Shown: one piece after another, positions 9,488 through 27,457 of the stretch | Numbering within the stretch: the first letter of the stretch is position 1 | How the letters are laid out: the number at the start of each line of letters is the position of its first letter | NCBI GenBank assembly: GCA_049700035.1 | Contig: JBNAWC010000002.1 | Coordinates: 6,847 to 70,846 of the forward strand | Reading direction: 5' to 3' | DNA length: 64,000 nucleotides | Source of the DNA: Candidatus Bathyarchaeales archaeon | Lineage (GTDB): Archaea; Thermoproteota; Bathyarchaeia; Bathyarchaeales; Bathycorpusculaceae | Made by a program: the position numbers and the translations under genes | The notes under the pieces: generated by a model | Told to the model about the DNA's origin: nothing | Database searches by the model: none | What the model saw: the letters and a program-made list of their open reading frames with translations, nothing else

Positions 9488-10123
9488 ATGAGTTCATTAA
9501 AGACCGTTTTAGAGGAAATACGTAAAGAACTGAAGGAGAAGGAGAAAATTCGAGAAAACGCCCAGAACAACATGCGAAAGGCAACAAGCCTTTCGAAACA
9601 GGCAATACTTCTAATACATCAAAAAAGATTAAAAGAAGCGAAAAAACTCATTAAAAAGGCAAAGGAAACCATTTCAGAGCTTAAAACTGCTTGCGCCGAC
9701 CACCCAGACATAATTTATAGTGGGCTATATGACGCGGCGCTTCAAGAATATTCCGAAGCAAACATATTTCTCAAACTAGTAGAAGAAGAACGCTTTGTAA
9801 CACCGAAAGAAATCGGCGTGCCCTCCGTAGACTATGTTCTGGGACTAGCAGACGTTATAGGAGAGTATAGGCGTTTGGCACTTGATGCATTGCGAGAAGG
9901 CGACGTACAAAAAAGCGAAAAATGCCTAAATGTAATGGATGAAATCTACATTGAGCTTATGGCAATGAACGAAGCGTACATGCTTGTTCCAGGCTTGCGG
10001 AGAAAATGCGATACTGCAAGGAAAATAATTGAGGTTACACGGGGCGATGTAACCCAAGAGGTTAGGAGAAGCACATTAGAAAAGTACCTTAAGGGTTTAG
10101 AGCGCCATTTAAGGAAAAAGTGA
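9488..10123 (+). CDS. translin family protein (archaeal C3PO/TRAX-like nuclease)
   Basis: All-helical 211-aa protein. VDYVLGLADVIGEYRRLALDAL is the translin-family signature. Acidic ExxE (QEYSEA) and DxxxE (ADVIGE) motifs are present. Confidence 0.75.
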   Translation: MSSLKTVLEEIRKELKEKEKIRENAQNNMRKATSLSKQAILLIHQKRLKEAKKLIKKAKETISELKTACADHPDIIYSGLYDAALQEYSEANIFLKLVEEERFVTPKEIGVPSVDYVLGLADVIGEYRRLALDALREGDVQKSEKCLNVMDEIYIELMAMNEAYMLVPGLRRKCDTARKIIEVTRGDVTQEVRRSTLEKYLKGLERHLRKK

Positions 10124-10126
10124 GTC

Positions 10127-10801
10127 ATGAGTGGAGTGCCTAAGAATTTTTCTGTCTGGAAGGCTCATGAAACCCAGATTCGTCTATCAAAAAAGATAGT
10201 TTTCGAGGATAAGTTGCCGAAGAAAATACGTTATGTTGCTGGCGTTGACGTGGCATATGCGAAAAATTTGTCAATAGGCGCCGTTGCAGTTTTGGATTAT
10301 GACACGCTTAGGCTTTTAGAATGTAAAACTGCCGTTTGTGAGACGCGTTTTCCATATATGCCAACGCTCTTGTCATTTAGAGAAGTTCCGCCAGCAGTCT
10401 CATGCATAAAAAAGTTGCAAATTCAGCCCGACGTTTTCCTTGTTGACGGACATGGCTTTGCTCATCCCTACCGCTGTGGATTTGCAAGCCACTTGGGATT
10501 AGTTTTGGGAAAACCAACAATCGGTGTGGCAAAAGGCAGATTGTGCGGAGAAGAAGAACATGCTCATGGAGAACCCATCACCTTTCTTAAACACGACGGC
10601 AAAATTATCGGTGCTGCAGTGACAACGAAGAGCGGGTGTAAACCTGTTTACGTGAGTGTGGGACATATGGTTTCGCTGGAAACTGCCGTTAAAATTGTTC
10701 AGCACTGCACAGTGACAAACAGAATTCCAGAGCCAATTTTGAGGGCACATGAAGCAGCAACCGCGGAAAAACGAAAAATCAATATGCGCAGCGGCTCTTA
10801 A
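10127..10801 (+). CDS. nfi: endonuclease V
   Basis: VAGVDVAY, LSFREVPP, and VDGHGFAHPYRCGFASHLGLVLGKPTIGVAK. Starts 4 nt after the translin stop. Confidence 0.9.
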   Translation: MSGVPKNFSVWKAHETQIRLSKKIVFEDKLPKKIRYVAGVDVAYAKNLSIGAVAVLDYDTLRLLECKTAVCETRFPYMPTLLSFREVPPAVSCIKKLQIQPDVFLVDGHGFAHPYRCGFASHLGLVLGKPTIGVAKGRLCGEEEHAHGEPITFLKHDGKIIGAAVTTKSGCKPVYVSVGHMVSLETAVKIVQHCTVTNRIPEPILRAHEAATAEKRKINMRSGS

Positions 10802-10839
10802 CAAGTGGCAAGTGAGAAGGCTTGCTTAACCCAAAGATT

Positions 10840-11544
10840 ATGGCAGTAGCCAACAAGATTCACGATGAAAAGCTGCGGAAAAAGGTTGTCGAATTTCTGG
10901 AAAATCCAACATTTGAAGTTGGCGGAAAAACTTATTCAGGCATATCCCTTGATATTTCACCCGCTGGTTTGTCACACCATCACTGTTATGCTGGAGGCTA
11001 CGTTGAACATGTCGTTTCAACAGCCAAAATAGCGCTCACGATATGCAACTGCGTAGAAAAAGTTTACCATGGAAAAGTAAACCGCGACTTCGTATTGGCT
11101 GGAGTGCTACTTCACGACATTTTAAAGCCTTTAACATATGTGATGAAGGAAAATGGAAGCTACGCGACGACAAGCTTAGCGGATTACATGGACCACTTAT
11201 CAATGGTAATCGCCGAACTTGTCCGAAGAAAGTTTCCAATAGAAGTGGTTCACGTAGTTTCAGCCCACCACGGCGAATACGGACCAATTAGACCGCACAC
11301 TATAGAGGCTTTAATCTGCCACCTAGCAGATTTAATCGATTCACGGTTAAACGGAGAAGTGCTAAACGCCGCAGCTTACCTAGCGAGAAAAGCCACTGGA
11401 GAAGAATTAACGGGACTAACATCAAAGGAAGCTTTTGAAATAATCCATTCAAAGGCAACTGAGGGCTGGAACGGCGTGGCAAAAACCGTGGAAAAGCTGA
11501 AACGCAAAAGGAAAGTCGCAAAACTTAATAGCCAACACCATTGA
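10840..11544 (+). CDS. HD-domain metal-dependent phosphohydrolase (MptB-like cyclic-phosphate phosphodiesterase / YhaM-type HD domain)
   Basis: PAGLSHHHCYAGGYVEHVVS, LLHDILKP, and SAHHGEYGP...LADLIDSRL. ATG at 10840 is preferred over TTG at 10822. Confidence 0.6.
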   Translation: MAVANKIHDEKLRKKVVEFLENPTFEVGGKTYSGISLDISPAGLSHHHCYAGGYVEHVVSTAKIALTICNCVEKVYHGKVNRDFVLAGVLLHDILKPLTYVMKENGSYATTSLADYMDHLSMVIAELVRRKFPIEVVHVVSAHHGEYGPIRPHTIEALICHLADLIDSRLNGEVLNAAAYLARKATGEELTGLTSKEAFEIIHSKATEGWNGVAKTVEKLKRKRKVAKLNSQHH

Positions 11545-11562
11545 AAAGTGTGAGAAAGGACG

Positions 11563-11898
11563 GTGAACAAAGTGGAGATATCGTTTGAGGAATTCCAAAA
11601 ACTGGACATGCGCATTGGAAAAATTTTGGAGGCAAACCAAATTCCAGGTTCACGGAACTTAATTAGGATGGTTGTGGATTTTGGAACAGAAAAGCGGCAA
11701 GCAGTTGCCGGCTTACTTCAATGGTACAAGCCCCAAGACCTAGTGGGCAAGAAATGCGCTTTCATACTGAACCTTCAAAGAAGGAAGTTTATGGGCGTGG
11801 AGTCGCAGTGCATGATTTTAGCTGCAGAAGACGAAAAGGGCAACGTGGTAGTGCTCCATCCAGAAAAGGATATAGCTGAAGGCAGCAAAATCCATTAA
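11563..11898 (+). CDS. tRNA-binding domain protein (Trbp111/CsaA/EMAP-II-like OB fold)
   Basis: FQKLDMRIGKILEANQIPGSRNLIRMVVDFG...VAGLLQWYKPQDLVGKKCAFILNLQRRKFMGVESQCMILAAED. GTG start. Confidence 0.8.
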   Translation: MNKVEISFEEFQKLDMRIGKILEANQIPGSRNLIRMVVDFGTEKRQAVAGLLQWYKPQDLVGKKCAFILNLQRRKFMGVESQCMILAAEDEKGNVVVLHPEKDIAEGSKIH

Positions 11899-11988
11899 AA
11901 TTCAGACTTCAAACACTTTTCTGACTCGATATTGTTAAATATTACTGTGTCAAAAAATATTGAGTCGTTTGTAAAAGGACGGAAAAAT

Positions 11989-14403
11989 ATGAAAGAGAAA
12001 TTAAGCAAAAAGCTTGTGGGACTTTTGATTGCCGCAACACTGCTTACGGCTTTTATGCCAAATTTGGCATATGCAACAGGTGGACTTGAGTTGGAAACAA
12101 GCTATTCATGGACAACTGGTGACAATAATTATTCAAACGCTGTTGCTGCAGGAGATATCGATGATGATGGCGTAAAGGAAATAGTTACCGCGGGATACTT
12201 CTATAATTCAACAGCAAGTGCTTATGATGGTGAATTAGATATTTGGAATTGGAACGGTTCAACTTTAACCTCTGAATATAAAAAACATCTCAGCACAGAT
12301 GAGACACTTTCAAACAATACACGCCTTAACTCCGTGGCATTAAGCAATATTGACAATGAAACAGACACAGAAATCATCACTGCTGGGCGAGGGAACTTCT
12401 TGTTTATAATATCGCTTTTCCCACTCAAAATAGCTTTTCAAGAACAAGGAGCTTTATTCATAAGCAACTGGAACGGTTCAACATTCACCACAAAACATTT
12501 TGCAGTATGGCCAGGTGATCACACTAAAAAGGCAGAATTTTTGGACGTAGCCGTCGGCGACATAGATAAAGATGATGTCACTGAAATAGTCGCTGTTGGC
12601 AAAGTAAACATGACAAGTGATAGTGTAACTGGTTTTCACGGAGTCTTAACCATATGGAGCGTGAATGATAGCGGCGTCTTAACGCTTGAAAAAAGTTTTA
12701 CCAAAATCATCACTCAAGGAGAGAACATCTGGCGCGCAGTATCCATAAGCGACGTGGACAATGATGGAGAATTGGAAATAGTCATAGTTGGCGATTATTA
12801 CAACACAAACATAAACCGCAGATGCTCCATAATACGCATATGCACATGGGATGGTTCGACGCTAAAATGGGAAGCAAGTTCAGAATGGTACACTTACAGC
12901 GACACATACATCACCGATGTTGCAGTTAGCGACATAGACCTAGATGGAATACCAGAAATCATAACAAGCGGATACTGCTTTACCAGCGAGACCATAAATG
13001 TCCAGCTTAGAGTGTGGACTTGGAACAAGGATGTTTTGACATTAAAACTTAGCATAGAAGAAGGCTTAGTGGAACCGCCAATCCCAACATTTGCAACAAA
13101 ACTTGCAGTAAGCGACATTGACGCTGATGGCAAAAACGAAATAATACTAGGAATAGACGCTTTTCTAATATTTTGGACACAAGCGTATATTCGAATACTT
13201 GCTTGGGAAAACGGAACGTTAATCACAAAGGAGCACAGGGATTGGACAAGCGTATCTTCAATCCAAGATATCACAACAAGCGACGTAGACGACGACGGAA
13301 AAGTCGAAATATTGACAGCTGGGTACACTGCAGGTTTGATGACGCTTCCCAGCGCAAATCTCGGTATATGGAGCGTAAGTAAAGTCGCCAGTTCGATAAC
13401 CGTGAATGTAAGTCCGTCAAGCATTGTTATAGGTAGTCAAGTTACAATAAGCGGCAAAGTGACAAATGAAACAGGCGACACGCCAATACCAAATGCTGAA
13501 GTGACAATAGAATTTTCACGTGAACCCTTACCACTTCTGGTAACGATAGGCAAGGTTGTAACGAATGAAAATGGAGAATACACCTTTACGTGGACCCCGC
13601 CGGCAGCTGGAAACTACATAATCCGTGTAAGCTGGAAAGGCGACTATGAACATGAGGCTGCAGCCGCAACAACCACATTAACGGTTGAAAAGGCTTCAAG
13701 TCTAATAGCCCTAACGCTTTCAAGCTACACAGCAACAGTCGGAGACAGCGTAAGCGTAAGCGGCACACTTTATCCAGCCAAAACAGCGGCAATAACCATC
13801 AAATACACAAAGCCAGACAGTTCAATAACCACAAAAACTGTTTACTCAAACCAAGCTGGAGTTTTCACCGACACATTCACGGCAGACCAAGTTGGACAAT
13901 GGCAAGTAACAGCAAGCTGGAGCGGCGACGACACATACAAAGCAGCTGAAAGCGCACCAACACCGTTAACAGTAACAAAAATACAAAGCACATTAGCAGT
14001 AACCGCATCGCAGTTAACAGTCAACGTAGGCGAAAACATAACAATAGACGGAGCGCTGACGCCCGGGCAAACCGCGAACATAACCCTCACATACACAATG
14101 CCAAACGGCACAACCACAACAAAAACCGTTCAATCAACAAGCACTGGAACATTCACGGACACAATTAAACTTGATACCGCTGGCATATGGCAAGTAAAAG
14201 CAAGCTGGACTGGCGACACACAAAACACCGCAGCCGAAAGCACAACAATAACACTAACGGCTCAAGCAGTCGACACCACAACACCCATGTTTGCGCTAGG
14301 CGGTTTAGGACTCGGCATAATAGCACTAATTTTGGCGGCAGTGGCACTTATTATCCCCTCTAAAAAACCAAAAACAACTTCACTAACACAACAATCAACA
14401 TAA
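11989..14403 (+). CDS. secreted FG-GAP/VCBS seven-repeat beta-propeller protein with three Ig-like repeats and a C-terminal membrane anchor
   Basis: Signal peptide MKEKLSKKLVGLLIAATLLTAFMPNLAYA from ATG 11989. Seven D-x-D-x-D-G-x-x-E-I repeats (GDIDDDGVKEIV ... SDVDDDGKVEIL). C-terminal TPMFALGGLGLGIIALILAAVALIIPSKKPK. Confidence 0.8.
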   Translation: MKEKLSKKLVGLLIAATLLTAFMPNLAYATGGLELETSYSWTTGDNNYSNAVAAGDIDDDGVKEIVTAGYFYNSTASAYDGELDIWNWNGSTLTSEYKKHLSTDETLSNNTRLNSVALSNIDNETDTEIITAGRGNFLFIISLFPLKIAFQEQGALFISNWNGSTFTTKHFAVWPGDHTKKAEFLDVAVGDIDKDDVTEIVAVGKVNMTSDSVTGFHGVLTIWSVNDSGVLTLEKSFTKIITQGENIWRAVSISDVDNDGELEIVIVGDYYNTNINRRCSIIRICTWDGSTLKWEASSEWYTYSDTYITDVAVSDIDLDGIPEIITSGYCFTSETINVQLRVWTWNKDVLTLKLSIEEGLVEPPIPTFATKLAVSDIDADGKNEIILGIDAFLIFWTQAYIRILAWENGTLITKEHRDWTSVSSIQDITTSDVDDDGKVEILTAGYTAGLMTLPSANLGIWSVSKVASSITVNVSPSSIVIGSQVTISGKVTNETGDTPIPNAEVTIEFSREPLPLLVTIGKVVTNENGEYTFTWTPPAAGNYIIRVSWKGDYEHEAAAATTTLTVEKASSLIALTLSSYTATVGDSVSVSGTLYPAKTAAITIKYTKPDSSITTKTVYSNQAGVFTDTFTADQVGQWQVTASWSGDDTYKAAESAPTPLTVTKIQSTLAVTASQLTVNVGENITIDGALTPGQTANITLTYTMPNGTTTTKTVQSTSTGTFTDTIKLDTAGIWQVKASWTGDTQNTAAESTTITLTAQAVDTTTPMFALGGLGLGIIALILAAVALIIPSKKPKTTSLTQQST
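13384..14265 (+). repeat. three tandem ~95-aa Ig-like domain repeats inside the FG-GAP protein gene
   Basis: Each unit ends with W-x-G-D...A-x-S...LTV: IIRVSWKGDYEHEAAAATTTLTVEK, QVTASWSGDDTYKAAESAPTPLTVTK, and QVKASWTGDTQNTAAESTTITLTAQ. Approximate unit borders are 13692/13693 and 13977/13978. Confidence 0.7.
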
Positions 14404-19671: not shown

Positions 19672-21627
19672 TTATTCGCTTTCTGGGATTATCTTTTCTT
19701 CCTTTTCAAGGAAACCTGTCAAGAATATGGCGTATTCGCATGGGTGCTCGTTTTGTAGCAGGGATTTTATTATTTTTATTTTCCCCTTTTTGCCGTGGCT
19801 AACCCTAGAAATAATGTATTCAAGTGTTTTTTTCCGAAGACCGCAGAGCCACGTTTTCTGGTTGGTTTTGACCAGTTTGTAGTAGGGACAACTTTTGTAT
19901 TTTAGGGTGAAGCCTCCTTCAAAATATTCTATTTCAACTTCTACTCCTATTTCGCGATACATGTCAATAAGCCTTGCACCAACATCTTTGATTGTCCACG
20001 GGTAATCTTCTGGGAAAAGTGCATCTAACTGCTCTTTTTCAATGGCGAAAGCTTCCTCGATGGAGTTGCAAGACATGCCTTCAATGAGTGTTTGCATTAG
20101 CTTTTTCCGTGGCAATGGCTCCAGAACTGGTTTTTCCAAAAGTTTCAGTTTAAAGCTTAGCAGGTTCTGGAATGTTGTTGTTGAAACTTCATAACCTAAC
20201 TCCTTAAACATCGATTCTATTAAAATGCGTTGGCTGTTCATTACAAGAGGGTCTATCCGTTTAAAAATGATTGTGAAATGTTCATCACCAACAAACCTCA
20301 CTTCAGCGTCGGGCTGCGTTACGCTAATGCTTTTAATAATGAAGTTTTTAGAAAGACTACCGATTTTTTCTGGGTCGCTTCTAGCAAGCATGCGGATGGC
20401 GTTTGAGATGCGGACTCCTGTTGCGCGGTATATTTCCTCAAATTTTTGTCTATCACTCTCGTATACTTTTGCTGCAAAGGAGTTGAAGAGGTCGCGTGGA
20501 ACTGGGACAACATCTAAGAATTGCTTTCCTATTATTTGGAAGAGGTTTAGTTCTGCCAGCTGGTCTAGAATGCTTTGGTCTTCTGCGCCTACGTACTGTA
20601 TTGTCATATTTACATTTGCATGCTCGATTGAGTAGTGTAAAAGTTTCCATCCGCGTGTTGCCAAAACTATTGAAAGCACTGTTAAGGATAGACGGGCTGT
20701 CGATACGGCTGTGGCTTGAAAAACTAGCTCTAACGTGTTCTCTTTCTCTGTTAGAACTTTAACTTGCCTAAACCAGTTCATCTTGACAAAAGCAGAAATG
20801 ATGGTCTTCACGAAATCTTTGGGCTCTCTCGGAAACTCGCTAATGCCGAGAACTGTTCTTGCATCTTCTATGAAGTTGCCCAATTCTGTTACTGGTTCTT
20901 CCAGATGCTTTTCAGCCCAACCCATGAATGCTGGTCCAACAAGCATCAACGTGTTTTTGAACAACCCAGGAGTCACGTTTGCAAGTTCTTTTTCAATTTG
21001 CTGTTCCAGAAATTCGCCGAATTCCTTTCTTCTTAATGGGTAAATTTCGGGGCGAATCATTTTTATGGCTATGTCCTCGCCCATGATTCGTAGGTCGAAA
21101 TTCACGCTTATGCCTTCTAATATTGTGGCAACTTGAAAGGCAACCATTACGGGTAAACGTTTGAAGACTCTTGGTCTTAGTACGGCTATGCTGTCTATTT
21201 CGCTGTATGAGGGAATGTCAAAAAGGTTTGTAAGTCCTTTTATCTCTTCTAAAATCAGTAGGAATTCTTTGAAGTTTGATGGAGCTTTCCATGCGACAGA
21301 GCTTTTTAATATTTCGATTATGTTCTTTGCCTCTGCCTTTTGCTCCTTTATTAAGTCTTCAACTGTTTTGTTTCCTAGGGCGACTTCTAATAGGCTGTCA
21401 AGGCTTTTCCTACTAATCGATGTTAGGTCAAGCGCCTCTCTCAGTTTAGTTTGCTCATTAATTTTTGCTTTGATTGCACAATCGTCGCAAGAGCCAACCT
21501 TGTCCACCCTAAACAGAGTCTCTACAGCTTTTTCGAGGACACGGCTTTTCGTGCCATAGGTTTTTGCTAGTTCTTCAAGAATCTCGTCTGTTTTTCTGGT
21601 TATTGTTGTGTGAAGATGTACCGACAT
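19672..21627 (-). CDS. large uncharacterised protein: N-terminal ribbon-helix-helix (CopG/Arc-like) domain, repeated alpha/beta modules, and a C-terminal Cys-containing V4R/'methanogen output domain'-like module
   Basis: N-terminus VHLHTTITRKTDEILEELAKTYGTKSRVLEKAVETLF fits the RHH strand-helix-helix pattern. C-terminus KSCPYYKL...TWLCGL...HPCEYAIF. No enzyme motifs seen. Confidence 0.5.
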   Translation of the reverse strand: MSVHLHTTITRKTDEILEELAKTYGTKSRVLEKAVETLFRVDKVGSCDDCAIKAKINEQTKLREALDLTSISRKSLDSLLEVALGNKTVEDLIKEQKAEAKNIIEILKSSVAWKAPSNFKEFLLILEEIKGLTNLFDIPSYSEIDSIAVLRPRVFKRLPVMVAFQVATILEGISVNFDLRIMGEDIAIKMIRPEIYPLRRKEFGEFLEQQIEKELANVTPGLFKNTLMLVGPAFMGWAEKHLEEPVTELGNFIEDARTVLGISEFPREPKDFVKTIISAFVKMNWFRQVKVLTEKENTLELVFQATAVSTARLSLTVLSIVLATRGWKLLHYSIEHANVNMTIQYVGAEDQSILDQLAELNLFQIIGKQFLDVVPVPRDLFNSFAAKVYESDRQKFEEIYRATGVRISNAIRMLARSDPEKIGSLSKNFIIKSISVTQPDAEVRFVGDEHFTIIFKRIDPLVMNSQRILIESMFKELGYEVSTTTFQNLLSFKLKLLEKPVLEPLPRKKLMQTLIEGMSCNSIEEAFAIEKEQLDALFPEDYPWTIKDVGARLIDMYREIGVEVEIEYFEGGFTLKYKSCPYYKLVKTNQKTWLCGLRKKTLEYIISRVSHGKKGKIKIIKSLLQNEHPCEYAIFLTGFLEKEEKIIPESE

Positions 21628-21667: not shown

Positions 21668-21697
21668 CATGTTCATAAAAATTTGTGGAATGTACAT
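21668..21697. promoter_or_regulatory. ATGTWCAT box pair upstream of the RHH-protein gene
   Basis: ATGTTCAT at 21669-21676 and palindromic ATGTACAT at 21690-21697, 21 bp apart. They abut a TTTAAAAG TATA-like element (21660-21667, minus sense) 33-40 nt upstream of ATG 21627. Confidence 0.5.
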
Positions 21698-21711: not shown

Positions 21712-23490
21712 TTAACTTGGCGTTAATGGTGGCACGATGGGGCTGAATGTTGTGCCCTTTCTGGCTACGAGTGCATCTGCTACTCTTTTAACGGCTAACA
21801 TGTAGGCTGCTGTGCGCATGTTCACATTGTACTGTTTTGACATTTTAAGCACATCTTGGAAAGCCTTGGTTATTGTTTCCTTCAGTTTATTTCTAACTTC
21901 TTCTTCAGTCCAGTAATAGTTCATTTGGTTCTGCACTTGCTCAAAGTAGCTGACGATTACTCCGCCAGAGTTGGCGAGAATGTCTGGAATTACAAAAACG
22001 CCTTTTTTGAACAGAATTTCATCCGCCTCTGGAGTTGTAGGTCCATTAGCACCTTCTGCAACGATTTTTGCTTTTATGTTTGGCGCGTTTTCCTTTGTTA
22101 TTTGGTTTTCTAATGCTGCTGGAACTAGGATGTCGCATTCTAATTCTAACAATTGTTCATTTGTTATGAAAGTGCTGCTAGGATAGTCAACAACTGAACC
22201 AGTTTTCTCCTTGTGCATCAAGACTTTTTCTGGGTCTAAGCCTTCTGGGTTGTAAGCGCCTCCTTTTGAGTCTGAAACTGCAATGATTTTGCATCCGATT
22301 TCATGGAGTAGACGTGCTGCATGGTAGCCGACGTTTCCGTAGCCTTGCACTGCGACAGTTGCGCCTTTGAGGTCTATCCCAAGATGTTTAGCGGCTTCGA
22401 CAACGGTGTACATAAGCCCCCTTGATGTGGCTTCGCTTCTCCCACGAGAGCCACCCACATGAACAGGTTTTCCAGTAACCACGCCAAAAACGGGATAGCC
22501 GACTATTTCGCTGTATTCGTCCATTATCCAAGCCATCATTTCAGCGGTTGTGTAAACGTCTGGCGCTGGCACATCTGTGAAAGGTCCTATGAACTTTGCT
22601 ATGGCACGTACATATCCCCTTGTGAGACGCTCAAGTTCTGCCCTTGACATTTCCTTGGGATTGCACCTAATTCCACCCTTGCCCCCGCCGAGAGGCAAAC
22701 CTGTCACGGCTGTTTTCCATGTCATCCAAGCAGCTAAGGCAGTAACTTCGTCCAAGGTGAGGTCTGGATGGTATCTTATGCCGCCCTTTGTTGGACCTAA
22801 AGCGTCATTGTATTGAACGCGGTATCCAGTGAAAACTTGGATGCTGCCATCATCCATGACTACTGGAATGTTGACGATAAGTGTGCGCATTGGGCGCTTC
22901 AATATTTCATGTATGCCTGGGTCGAGATTCAGTTTTTCGGCGGCTACGTCTAGCTGTTTAAGGGCGGCTTCATAAGGGTTTGGCGTGACCGCTAGAGGGG
23001 CTAAAGTGTCAACTTTGACAAACACGGCTGTTTGGAGTTTCTCAACTAAGTTCTTGAGGGTTTCCTTTGCTACTTCACCGTTGCCTTCACTGCTTCCATA
23101 AAACCACAAGTAAGTTTCAGTCAAAGCGTCTTCCTTCCTAGAGAGGAACGCCCCAGCCGGAGCCATTTTTGGACTTTCAGAGAAATAGTCAACGAGAACT
23201 CGCAGCATGTTAAGTTCTTCGCGTGTCAGAGGCAAAAGTTTCTTTATCAGTTCTGGCGCTTTCACGTGAACGTATTCAGCGTCCAACAATTTCTTCTGTA
23301 GCTCTTCAAAGACTTTTAAGGAATCCTCTATCGGTATGCCAAAGTTTTCTGAGTACGTTGTAAGCAAGGCATAGTGAGCCGTTGTGTAGCTTTCTATTTT
23401 TGCTGTCAACTCTGGTTTTTCAGCAAAGAAGTCCACCATTAACTTAAGCATTCCCAATTCACGAGCTGAAAGGTCTACCGAGTTTAACAT
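21712..23490 (-). CDS. glutamate dehydrogenase with ~170-aa internally duplicated N-terminal extension
   Basis: GDH core from NPYEAALKQLDVAAEKLNLDPG: GPTKGGIRYHP, catalytic-Lys loop PLGGGKGG, and Rossmann VAVQGYGNVG. ATG 23490 with GGAAGGTG upstream is preferred over TTG 23514. Confidence 0.85.
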   Translation of the reverse strand: MLNSVDLSARELGMLKLMVDFFAEKPELTAKIESYTTAHYALLTTYSENFGIPIEDSLKVFEELQKKLLDAEYVHVKAPELIKKLLPLTREELNMLRVLVDYFSESPKMAPAGAFLSRKEDALTETYLWFYGSSEGNGEVAKETLKNLVEKLQTAVFVKVDTLAPLAVTPNPYEAALKQLDVAAEKLNLDPGIHEILKRPMRTLIVNIPVVMDDGSIQVFTGYRVQYNDALGPTKGGIRYHPDLTLDEVTALAAWMTWKTAVTGLPLGGGKGGIRCNPKEMSRAELERLTRGYVRAIAKFIGPFTDVPAPDVYTTAEMMAWIMDEYSEIVGYPVFGVVTGKPVHVGGSRGRSEATSRGLMYTVVEAAKHLGIDLKGATVAVQGYGNVGYHAARLLHEIGCKIIAVSDSKGGAYNPEGLDPEKVLMHKEKTGSVVDYPSSTFITNEQLLELECDILVPAALENQITKENAPNIKAKIVAEGANGPTTPEADEILFKKGVFVIPDILANSGGVIVSYFEQVQNQMNYYWTEEEVRNKLKETITKAFQDVLKMSKQYNVNMRTAAYMLAVKRVADALVARKGTTFSPIVPPLTPS

Positions 23491-23522
23491 CTTTTCACAC
23501 CTTCCGAAAACCAACGAAAGTG

Positions 23523-23570
23523 ATGTTCAACTATAGAAACGTTATGTCCATCATGTACACGCATGTACAA
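23523..23570. promoter_or_regulatory. array of four ATGTNCAN boxes in the divergent GDH / KaiC-like promoter
   Basis: ATGTTCAA 23523, ATGTCCAT 23544, ATGTACAC 23553, and ATGTACAA 23563, with start-to-start spacing of 21, 9 and 10 bp. Confidence 0.5.
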
Positions 23571-24410: not shown

Positions 24411-24428
24411 ATGTACATTCATGTTCAT
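24411..24428. promoter_or_regulatory. ATGTWCAT box pair upstream of the GltS-FMN-like gene
   Basis: ATGTACAT at 24411-24418 and ATGTTCAT at 24421-24428, 10 bp apart. They lie 23 bp upstream of TATA-like GTTTAAATG (24451-24459). Confidence 0.5.
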
Positions 24429-26206: not shown

Positions 26207-27457
26207 ATGAAAGAACAGCAAACAGCACTTGACGTGGCTCTGGAACAGTTAGAAATAGCCGCTGAAAAATTAAACTTAGAACCTGGAATACATGAGATGC
26301 TGAAGCACCCCAAAAGGTCGCTAATTGTCTCCATTACGATAAGGATGGATGATGGAAGCATACACGTTTTAAAGGGATGCCGCGTTCAACATTGGGATGC
26401 ACGCGGACCATTTAAGGGTGGAATCCGCTATCACCCAAATGTAACACTTGAAGAGGTAACCGCACTTGCAATGTGGATGACTTGGAAATGCGCTGTTGTA
26501 GACATTCCATACGGAGGGGCAAAAGGTGGAATATGCTGTAATCCGAAGGAAATGTCAAAAAGTGAACTTGAAAGGCTTACAAGAAGGTACACAAGCCTAA
26601 TTCTTGATTACATTGGCCCGTACCGTGATGTACCAGCACCAGACGTTTACACAGACGCGCAAACAATGGCCTGGATAATGGACACATACAGCCAATTCAA
26701 AGGCTACAGCGTCCCAGAATGCGTAACTGGAAAACCAATAAGTGTTGGCGGCTCTGAGGGAAGAGAGGAAGCAACCTCAAGAGGAGTTGTAATCTGCGCA
26801 AGGGAAGCAGCAAAACGTTTAGGCTTAAAGTTTAAAGGCGCAACTGTCGCAGTGCAAGGCTACGGAAACGTCGGGTGGAACGCAGCAAAAATCGCACATG
26901 ACATAGGATGCAAAATTGTCGCAGTTAGCGACTCCACTGGAGGAATCTATTGCCCAGAAGGCTTAAACCCACGCAAAGTCTACGAACACAAGGCAAAAAC
27001 TGGCTCAGTAATTAACTATCCAAAATGCAAAAACATATCAAACGAGGAATTACTCGAAACAAAATGTGACATATTAATTCCAGCGGCGCTTGAAAACCAA
27101 ATAACAAGAGCTAATGCAGACAAGATAAAAGCGAAAATAATAGTCGAAGGCGCAAATGGACCGACAACCCCAGAAGCAGACAAAATACTTCGAGAAAGGG
27201 GAATTTTTCTGGTTCCAGACATCTTGGCAAACGCTGGCGGAGTAACAGTAAGCTATTTTGAATGGGTTCAAAACTTAACAAGAGAACATTGGACATTGGA
27301 AGAAGTGAACAGAAAACTCGAGAACATAATGGTGAAAGCGTTCAATGACGTTTACAACTTGATGGAAAAGAAAAAGGAGGCCATGCGCACAGCAGCATTA
27401 ATGCTTGGTGTCGGAAGAGTAAGCGAAGCAATAAAAACATTGGGACTATGGCCATAA
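26207..27457 (+). CDS. gdhA: glutamate dehydrogenase (canonical ~416 aa hexameric type)
   Basis: GPFKGGIRYHP, PYGGAKGG, and VAVQGYGNVG. About 60% identity by eye to the core of the extended paralog at 21712-23490. Confidence 0.92.
   Translation: MKEQQTALDVALEQLEIAAEKLNLEPGIHEMLKHPKRSLIVSITIRMDDGSIHVLKGCRVQHWDARGPFKGGIRYHPNVTLEEVTALAMWMTWKCAVVDIPYGGAKGGICCNPKEMSKSELERLTRRYTSLILDYIGPYRDVPAPDVYTDAQTMAWIMDTYSQFKGYSVPECVTGKPISVGGSEGREEATSRGVVICAREAAKRLGLKFKGATVAVQGYGNVGWNAAKIAHDIGCKIVAVSDSTGGIYCPEGLNPRKVYEHKAKTGSVINYPKCKNISNEELLETKCDILIPAALENQITRANADKIKAKIIVEGANGPTTPEADKILRERGIFLVPDILANAGGVTVSYFEWVQNLTREHWTLEEVNRKLENIMVKAFNDVYNLMEKKKEAMRTAALMLGVGRVSEAIKTLGLWP

Follow-up and report, generated by a model that had tools for sequence, protein, structure and literature searches.

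Within a 64,000-nucleotide stretch of contig JBNAWC010000002.1 from a Candidatus Bathyarchaeales archaeon (here called the window, to which all unlabelled coordinates refer), we found a gene for a long glutamate dehydrogenase (GDH) that belongs to a three-gene cassette. The long GDH, a divergently encoded KaiC/PAXNEB-like protein and a regulator-like protein of 651 amino acids (aa) are inherited together, remain linked after rearrangement and are lost together. This three-gene cassette is the main new result. The enzyme itself consists of an intact GDH preceded by an N-terminal extension which, judged from its sequence, is a real, translated and duplicated orphan domain.

The extension was surveyed in 401 genomes sampled across the class Bathyarchaeia. 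It occurs in 20 of them, which represent 17 of 131 genera, and every complete copy lies in an uninterrupted frame of ~590 aa. Within the source organism's own family its distribution is patchy; beyond it, the extension occurs in two sister families of the same order and in two families that are more distant. Both partner genes follow this distribution: a full-length orthologue of the 651-aa protein is present in 17 of the 401 genomes and an orthologue of the KaiC-like protein (E < 1e-90) in 16, all of them among the 20 with the extension, and a full-length partner without the extension occurs in none (0/401). Wherever a long GDH is found, the 651-aa protein is kept at 50-89% identity. The gene order kept in relatives is MCM, GINS, canonical GDH, a GltS-like gene, the KaiC/PAXNEB-like gene and then, divergently, the long GDH followed by the ~650-aa gene. 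A genome of a distant family (G037) is rearranged, with a 645-aa gene next to the KaiC-like gene and all three cassette genes within 5 kb; its canonical GDH and GltS-like genes lie apart from the cassette, the latter on another contig. With this rearranged order included, the cassette genes are neighbours everywhere.

In two further genomes only remnants of the cassette are left, decayed in place. In G400 (L016, C9:17400-22500), codons 1-26 of the long GDH gene are followed, after 57 nt, by codons 583-642 of the 651-aa gene; the junction is that of a single deletion of ~3.6 kb, and the KaiC-like gene is frameshifted, its parts lying in three frames. In G008 (L017, C11:260500-266000), the long GDH and 651-aa genes are gone and only frameshifted fragments of the KaiC-like gene are left. 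The GltS-like neighbour is intact in both genomes. As the GltS-like gene is widespread, being present in 163 of the 401 genomes independently of the cassette, the accessory unit is the three-gene cassette and not the five-gene neighbourhood. A five-gene module was rejected because only three genes co-vary.

The KaiC-like protein has the residues V-D-S-G-T-F at the position of the Walker A GK[ST], a change that its relatives share (HESGTF in L010, IETGTF in L015). As the Walker A lysine is replaced, the protein is probably incapable of normal ATP binding or hydrolysis. The 651-aa protein is without a Pfam family, and its C-terminal Cys-containing region gives a sub-threshold match to MetOD1 (E = 0.04). 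By eye only, its N-terminus resembles a ribbon-helix-helix (RHH) domain; Pfam finds no RHH family there. An hhalign comparison of the extension with this neighbour gave no homology. In G037 (L010:850-4451, 9850-13306), genes that look polyferredoxin-like, FAD/NAD-binding-subunit-like and GltD-like by eye come after the long GDH, and FwdC-, FwdA- and FwdB-like genes, likewise assigned by eye, precede it beyond the cassette. The FwdB-like open reading frame (ORF) holds a run of X, which is masked sequence. The features of the window are collected in Table 1.

Table 1 Coordinates of the long GDH gene, its parts, the co-inherited partners and the nearby box arrays in the window
Feature	Coordinates	Strand	Remarks
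Long GDH gene	21712..23490	minus	592 aa + stop, start ATG 23490
Extension repeat 1, residues 1-84	23239..23490	minus	near-invariant motif FFAEKPELTAKIESYTTAHYAL.TTYSENFG
Extension repeat 2, residues 85-168	22987..23238	minus	
GDH core, residues 170-577	21760..22983	minus	intact catalytic and dinucleotide-binding motifs
C-terminal tail, residues 578-592	21715..21759	minus	poorly conserved
Divergent KaiC/PAXNEB-like RecA-fold protein, 247 aa	23644..24387	plus	co-inherited partner
651-aa regulator-like protein, downstream of long GDH	19672..21627	minus	co-inherited partner
Four TGNACA boxes, spacing 10, 9, 21 bp, around TTCTATA	23523..23570	no strand	upstream of long GDH start
Pair of ATGTWCAT boxes (ATGTACAT/ATGTTCAT)	21669..21697	no strand	promoter of 651-aa gene
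Pair of ATGTWCAT boxes (ATGTACAT/ATGTTCAT)	24411..24428	no strand	upstream of GltS-like/canonical GDH genes

The gene is predicted to encode, at full length, a catalytically intact glutamate dehydrogenase of the small type. A Pfam scan placed PF02812 (ELFV_dehydrog_N) at residues 200-327 (E = 2.9e-58) and PF00208 (ELFV_dehydrog) at residues 346-576 (E = 5.2e-88), so that both ELFV superfamily domains expected of a small hexameric GDH are present. Among solved proteins, the hexameric GDHs of Thermococcales and Thermotoga are nearest; the match of the core to the T. litoralis enzyme (1BVU) has E = 2e-165. As residue 170 of the query aligns to residue 3 of 1BVU, a complete canonical enzyme is present with ~169 residues added in front; the extra residues, 1 to ~169, are encoded at 22984-23490. 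End-to-end alignment with residues 170-577 is likewise found for the small hexameric GDHs of P. furiosus (1GTM), T. profundus (1EUZ) and Thermotoga maritima (2TMG) and for the NCBIfam family NF040817. What the long GDH shares with these enzymes is the catalytic lysine of GGGKGG, the substrate-binding lysines, the aspartate of PAPDV and the GYGNVG fingerprint; unlike them it has the added N-terminal residues and a variable tail of ~15 residues. It also has FEQVQN where 1BVU and the adjacent paralogue have FEWVQN. When aligned with 1BVU and the canonical paralogue, the motifs KGGIR, WK, GGGKGG, PAPDV, GYGNVG and VSYFE are all intact, as the initial annotation had maintained for the catalytic motifs. 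That annotation had also taken the GDH gene at 26207 as a canonical paralogue; this gene (26207-27457, ~2.7 kb from the long GDH) indeed lacks the extension and is 65% identical over the core.

A word-indexed protein search found 274 homologues of the long GDH, 120 of which were listed. The listed homologues have 579-631 aa, mostly ~590, and their sources name Bathyarchaeia. The initial annotation had suggested surveying long GDH homologues for the same extension, and all 120 carry it together with both GDH domains. Among them the catalytic and substrate segments of the core are near-invariant, and mean pairwise identity falls to ~24% in the C-terminal tail. The Trp-to-Gln change that turns SYFEWVQN of the canonical paralogue and 1BVU into SYFEQVQN (21940-21957, minus strand, residues 512-517) is fixed in the same 120 sequences. 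The match of residues 170-577 to the NCBIfam model GdhA_Arch (NF040817) scores 644.2 bits, below the equivalog cut-off of 750, and the long GDH is best classified as a divergent paralogue of the GDH family and no trusted GdhA_Arch equivalog. Its 592 aa also lie outside the single-module architecture of ~410-450 aa of small hexameric GDHs. It does not belong to the large GDHs, since the model PF05088 (Bac_GDH_CD) reaches only 15.9 bits against a cut-off of 22.8 (E = 0.005) and only over the NAD domain.

Another reading would be that the upstream 170 codons are untranslated or a separate gene and that the enzyme starts internally. An in-frame GTG at codon 156 speaks for such an annotation artefact, which we consider effectively excluded. 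The minus-strand ORF 21712..23514 is open throughout, with neither a stop codon nor a methionine at the junction of extension and core, and the open frame of ~590 aa recurs in every complete genome copy. The Shine-Dalgarno (SD)-like sequence GGAAGGTG precedes ATG 23490 by 7-14 nt, MLNSVELS forms the N-terminus of all homologues among the 120 matches listed at the position of this ATG, and a GGAGG-like motif is kept ahead of the start in relatives; ATG 23490 is therefore taken as the true start. A TATA-like element lies ~45 nt from this ATG, which places the transcription start just upstream of the extension and supports its translation. Amino-acid conservation begins at the first codon, and from there on the ratio of nonsynonymous (dN) to synonymous (dS) divergence, omega, is ~0.03. 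The internal methionine start that the initial annotation had named as a possible objection thus finds no support.

The extension consists of two homologous units of ~84 aa each. BLASTP of one half against the other gave 32% identity over 76 columns (E = 2e-7), and hhalign of the two repeat profiles built from 21 homologues gave a probability of 97.2% (E = 2.9e-11, 76 columns). The internal duplication of ~170 aa that had been noticed in the initial annotation is thus confirmed, and its coordinates fit the interval found here. An alignment of 26 repeat copies shows no variation at E11, D20, F22, P26, Y46 and G51 in either repeat. Against a same-genus relative, the closest pair, omega is 0.024 for repeat 1, 0.044 for repeat 2 and 0.033 for the core (dN 0.04-0.07; dS about 1.5-1.7, which is saturated). 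These values point to purifying selection on the extension as strong as that on the GDH core, and they bear out the earlier view that the gene is not a pseudogene. Mean pairwise identity among the 120 listed homologues is 78% for repeat 1, 66% for repeat 2 and 78-84% for the core. Residues 21-40 (FFAEKPELTAKIESYTTAHY) have a column entropy of 0.16, comparable to that of active-site segments (0.08-0.13). In the distant G037, the ESYTTAHY motif is replaced by KGSASPRY.

No family match to the extension was found in Pfam, NCBIfam or the sequences of the PDB; the known GDH-fused domain that the initial annotation had named as a possible objection did not appear. The best sequence matches, peptidase M13 (E = 0.057) and ExsD_M/DMP12 (E ~0.1), were taken as chance. 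An exhaustive hidden Markov model (HMM) search with the extension profile through 1.84 billion representatives at 50% identity returned 12 matches, namely a single cluster of full length, a set of fragments and two short ORFs, and no other protein architecture carrying the extension was found among them. By these searches the extension appears to be essentially a feature of this GDH alone, and to occur only in some of the Bathyarchaeia.

A stand-alone copy of the extension (P0122) has 170-173 aa and is 55% identical to it. It lies at L014:1032-1553 on the ENA contig k141_2746821 (2876 bp). The reading frame stops precisely at the boundary of the domain, and the GDH core is absent downstream on the contig. 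As the same protein is present in a second assembly, from Logan, and P0122 appears genuine, the existence of this copy indicates that the extension module can occur as a protein in its own right. Next to P0122 lie a PhoU-domain gene and a fragment with a weak match to a terminase large subunit (phrog_2, E = 0.008), and a mobile element or virus may be its carrier. A second stand-alone candidate (P0123, 165 aa, on the 943-bp Logan contig L015 from SRR12235899) was set aside as a probable chimeric or fold-back assembly artefact. Its extension ORF ends in ...IEIETGTFAQSC and the opposite strand encodes a KaiC-like ...WEIETGTFAQEF, so that the peptide EIETGTFAQ is encoded twice in opposite orientation on the same contig.

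The extension was modelled with AlphaFold2. The tandem model, from a 21-sequence alignment, has a predicted local distance difference test score (pLDDT) of 80.7 and a predicted template modelling score (pTM) of 0.79. Each repeat is modelled as a short strand, a helix, a short helix, two long helices and a strand, and the same elements appear in a single-repeat model made with both repeat types in the alignment (pLDDT 83.1). Foldseek searches of the PDB and BFVD with the tandem model gave no match below E = 0.19; among its weak and non-significant matches are the tandem winged-helix proteins RepE, ScpB and ROQ. For the single repeat, compared with the PDB, the best geometry is that of sigma-A region 4 (5tjg_F, root-mean-square deviation (rmsd) 2.6 Å; 6onu_F; 8cwr_B), and a LuxR-type EsrB domain (7vim_A, template modelling score 0.61 on the target) and the helix-turn-helix (HTH) parts of Lrp and ArsR are also among the matches. 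These superpositions have rmsd values of 2.6-4.1 Å over ~62 columns with probabilities of at most 0.69, and all have E > 1. Profile searches of the whole extension and of 26 single repeats found no HTH or RHH family up to E = 10, and no RHH structure is among the Foldseek matches of either model.

The initial annotation had felt a weak resemblance of the repeat openings to LuxR and sigma region 4. This impression survives as the LxxxEL.ML..L opening helix of the repeat and as the geometric superposition on sigma-70 region 4 and LuxR-GerE HTH domains; it is not carried by statistical significance, by a profile match or by charge. The repeat differs from those domains by an additional stretch separating helices 1 and 2, by the added terminal strands, by its acidic charge and by a poorly conserved helix at the recognition position. 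The extension of the source protein has a net charge of -7 and an isoelectric point of 5.0 (mean charge of repeat 1 -4.4, of repeat 2 -2.6), and its strands NSVD and LPL are without basic residues. The recognition-position helix (residues 54-70) has a net charge of -2, and its high column entropy puts it with the least conserved parts of the extension. This acidic charge argues against DNA binding. We consider the extension an orphan helical module; it may derive from an HTH domain, and DNA binding by it is unlikely.

The DNA upstream of the long GDH is itself conserved. The array of TGNACA boxes reads TGTACA-N4-TGTACA-N3-TGGACA-N15-TGAACA, its N15 segment holds the TATA-like element, and it is common to the long GDH and the divergent KaiC-like gene. 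Relatives from four families, including G037, G302 and G136, have it with nearly every base unchanged, and it was seen upstream of the long GDH at loci L001, L003-L007, L009, L010, L012 and L013. The array is probably an operator that overlaps a shared divergent promoter. ATGTWCAT boxes occur as pairs at two other promoters beside the cassette genes (Table 1). The pattern ATGWWCAT is not significantly enriched across the window (7 observed vs 3.9 expected); 4 of the 7 matches fall in these two cassette-adjacent promoters. The N-terminus of the 651-aa protein appears as the obvious candidate for binding the boxes.

Considering the conserved extension and its co-inherited neighbours, we favour, at a little less than an even chance, the reading that the extension is a partner-docking or regulatory module linking the GDH hexamer to the cassette partners. 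Presented six times on the hexamer, the extension would couple the enzyme to one or both of them. Either the partners would control GDH activity, or the substrate state of the enzyme would be passed to the regulator-like 651-aa protein, which would act on the ATGTWCAT and TGNACA boxes of the cassette and of the GltS-like/GDH promoters. The resulting arrangement would be akin to a trigger-enzyme circuit. The initial annotation had proposed a regulated or tethered enzyme, and this idea is now backed by the co-inheritance with two regulator-like genes, though it is still inferred. In a more specific and doubtful form, which has only a minor chance of being right, the cassette would be an undescribed archaeal circuit for sensing glutamate and 2-oxoglutarate. 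The acidic, HTH-like N-domain of the GDH trigger enzyme would signal the catalytic state to the 651-aa protein, possibly by competition for DNA or by DNA mimicry, and the 651-aa protein would control the promoters with ATGTWCAT boxes.

Several observations weigh against the docking of partners on the extension. Its physical contact with them is hypothetical, and so is a regulatory function of either partner, the 651-aa protein having no match beyond the sub-threshold one to MetOD1. Two genomes (G232 and G274) carry the extension without a match to the 651-aa or KaiC-like gene; as these genomes are 92-93% complete, the absence is uncertain. P0122 stands without cassette partners on its one short contig. 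The co-inheritance among related genomes is also partly a matter of phylogenetic non-independence.

The main competitor of partner docking is that the extension acts as an autonomous allosteric sensor, in which binding of a small metabolite (an amino acid, 2-oxoglutarate or a nucleotide, for instance) modulates the GDH without the products of the neighbouring genes. Allostery is a classic property of GDHs, and regulatory insertions or domains have been gained by other classes of the enzyme. The extremely conserved polar helix ESYTTAHYAL.TTYSENFG, rich in Ser, Thr, Tyr, His and Asn, speaks for such a sensor, the two repeats pack confidently together in the tandem model and could form a pocket, and the stand-alone copy indicates that the module folds on its own. 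Still, the extension has no resemblance to ACT, PAS, GAF, CBS or any other known ligand-binding fold, the conserved motif is lost in G037, and an autonomous sensor leaves the co-inheritance and co-decay with two partners unexplained. We regard this as an unlikely alternative. That the extension is a structural or oligomerisation element, serving hexamer stability, the formation of filaments or other higher-order assemblies, or the joining of the long GDH and its canonical paralogue in a hetero-complex, has a small chance in our view. Its position ahead of the N-terminal dimerisation domain of the core would suit such a role, as would the second GDH paralogue conserved nearby, and the regulatory GDH hetero-complex of Thermus thermophilus is a precedent (PDB 3AOE contains two different GDH chains). 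Canonical archaeal GDHs, however, are stable hexamers without an extension, and many genomes that lack the long GDH hold the canonical GDH and GltS-like genes. A structural role would predict neither conservation of a polar, surface-type helix at the level of an active site nor linkage to regulator-like genes.

The long GDH could also be a DNA-binding trigger enzyme whose HTH-like repeats bind the TGNACA boxes and autoregulate genes of glutamate metabolism, much as PutA, BirA and NadR are enzymes that directly autoregulate genes. The likeness of the single repeat to sigma-A region 4, EsrB, Lrp and ArsR, the weak winged-helix matches of the tandem model and the four phased boxes directly upstream of the gene, conserved in four families, are consistent with such an activity. 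It is nevertheless improbable: every fold match has E > 1, no HTH or RHH family is detected by sequence, the module is acidic with a negatively charged and variable helix at the recognition position, and the 651-aa protein with its RHH-like N-terminus is another candidate for binding the boxes.

Neither the solved GDHs nor the large GDH class has a counterpart of the extension, and the literature searched gave no description of this form of GDH. The large GDHs (~115 and 180 kDa) and the antenna of animal GDH are precedents for GDHs with acquired regulatory parts. The extension has no homology to either and, as an N-terminal tandem of ~84-aa helical units, is neither like the large terminal domains of those enzymes nor an insertion into the NAD domain. 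In the RocG-GltC system of B. subtilis and the GdhA-GdhB(-APRTh) system of T. thermophilus, a GDH acts through contacts with a regulator or a regulatory subunit. The long GDH resembles them in being genetically tied to regulator-like, glutamate-synthase-like and GDH neighbours. The GDHs of those systems, however, are of ordinary length and without a dedicated docking domain, the KaiC-like and 651-aa partners are unrelated to GltC or APRTh, and the coupling in the present case is a proposed one. By analogy, the long GDH perhaps works like RocG-GltC or Thermus GdhA/GdhB, yet it is a member of neither system.

GDH stands at the junction of carbon and nitrogen metabolism. For its control in the uncultivated, protein-fermenting Bathyarchaeia, the extension points to a lineage-specific mechanism and possibly to a new small fold. 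The two co-inherited regulator-like genes offer concrete partners for testing, and the conserved operator-like array offers a defined DNA target. Should the proposed circuit not be true, the extension would still be a clean target for structure determination and Pfam curation. If it is true, the cassette would give archaea a new case of an enzyme that is tied into the control of genes.

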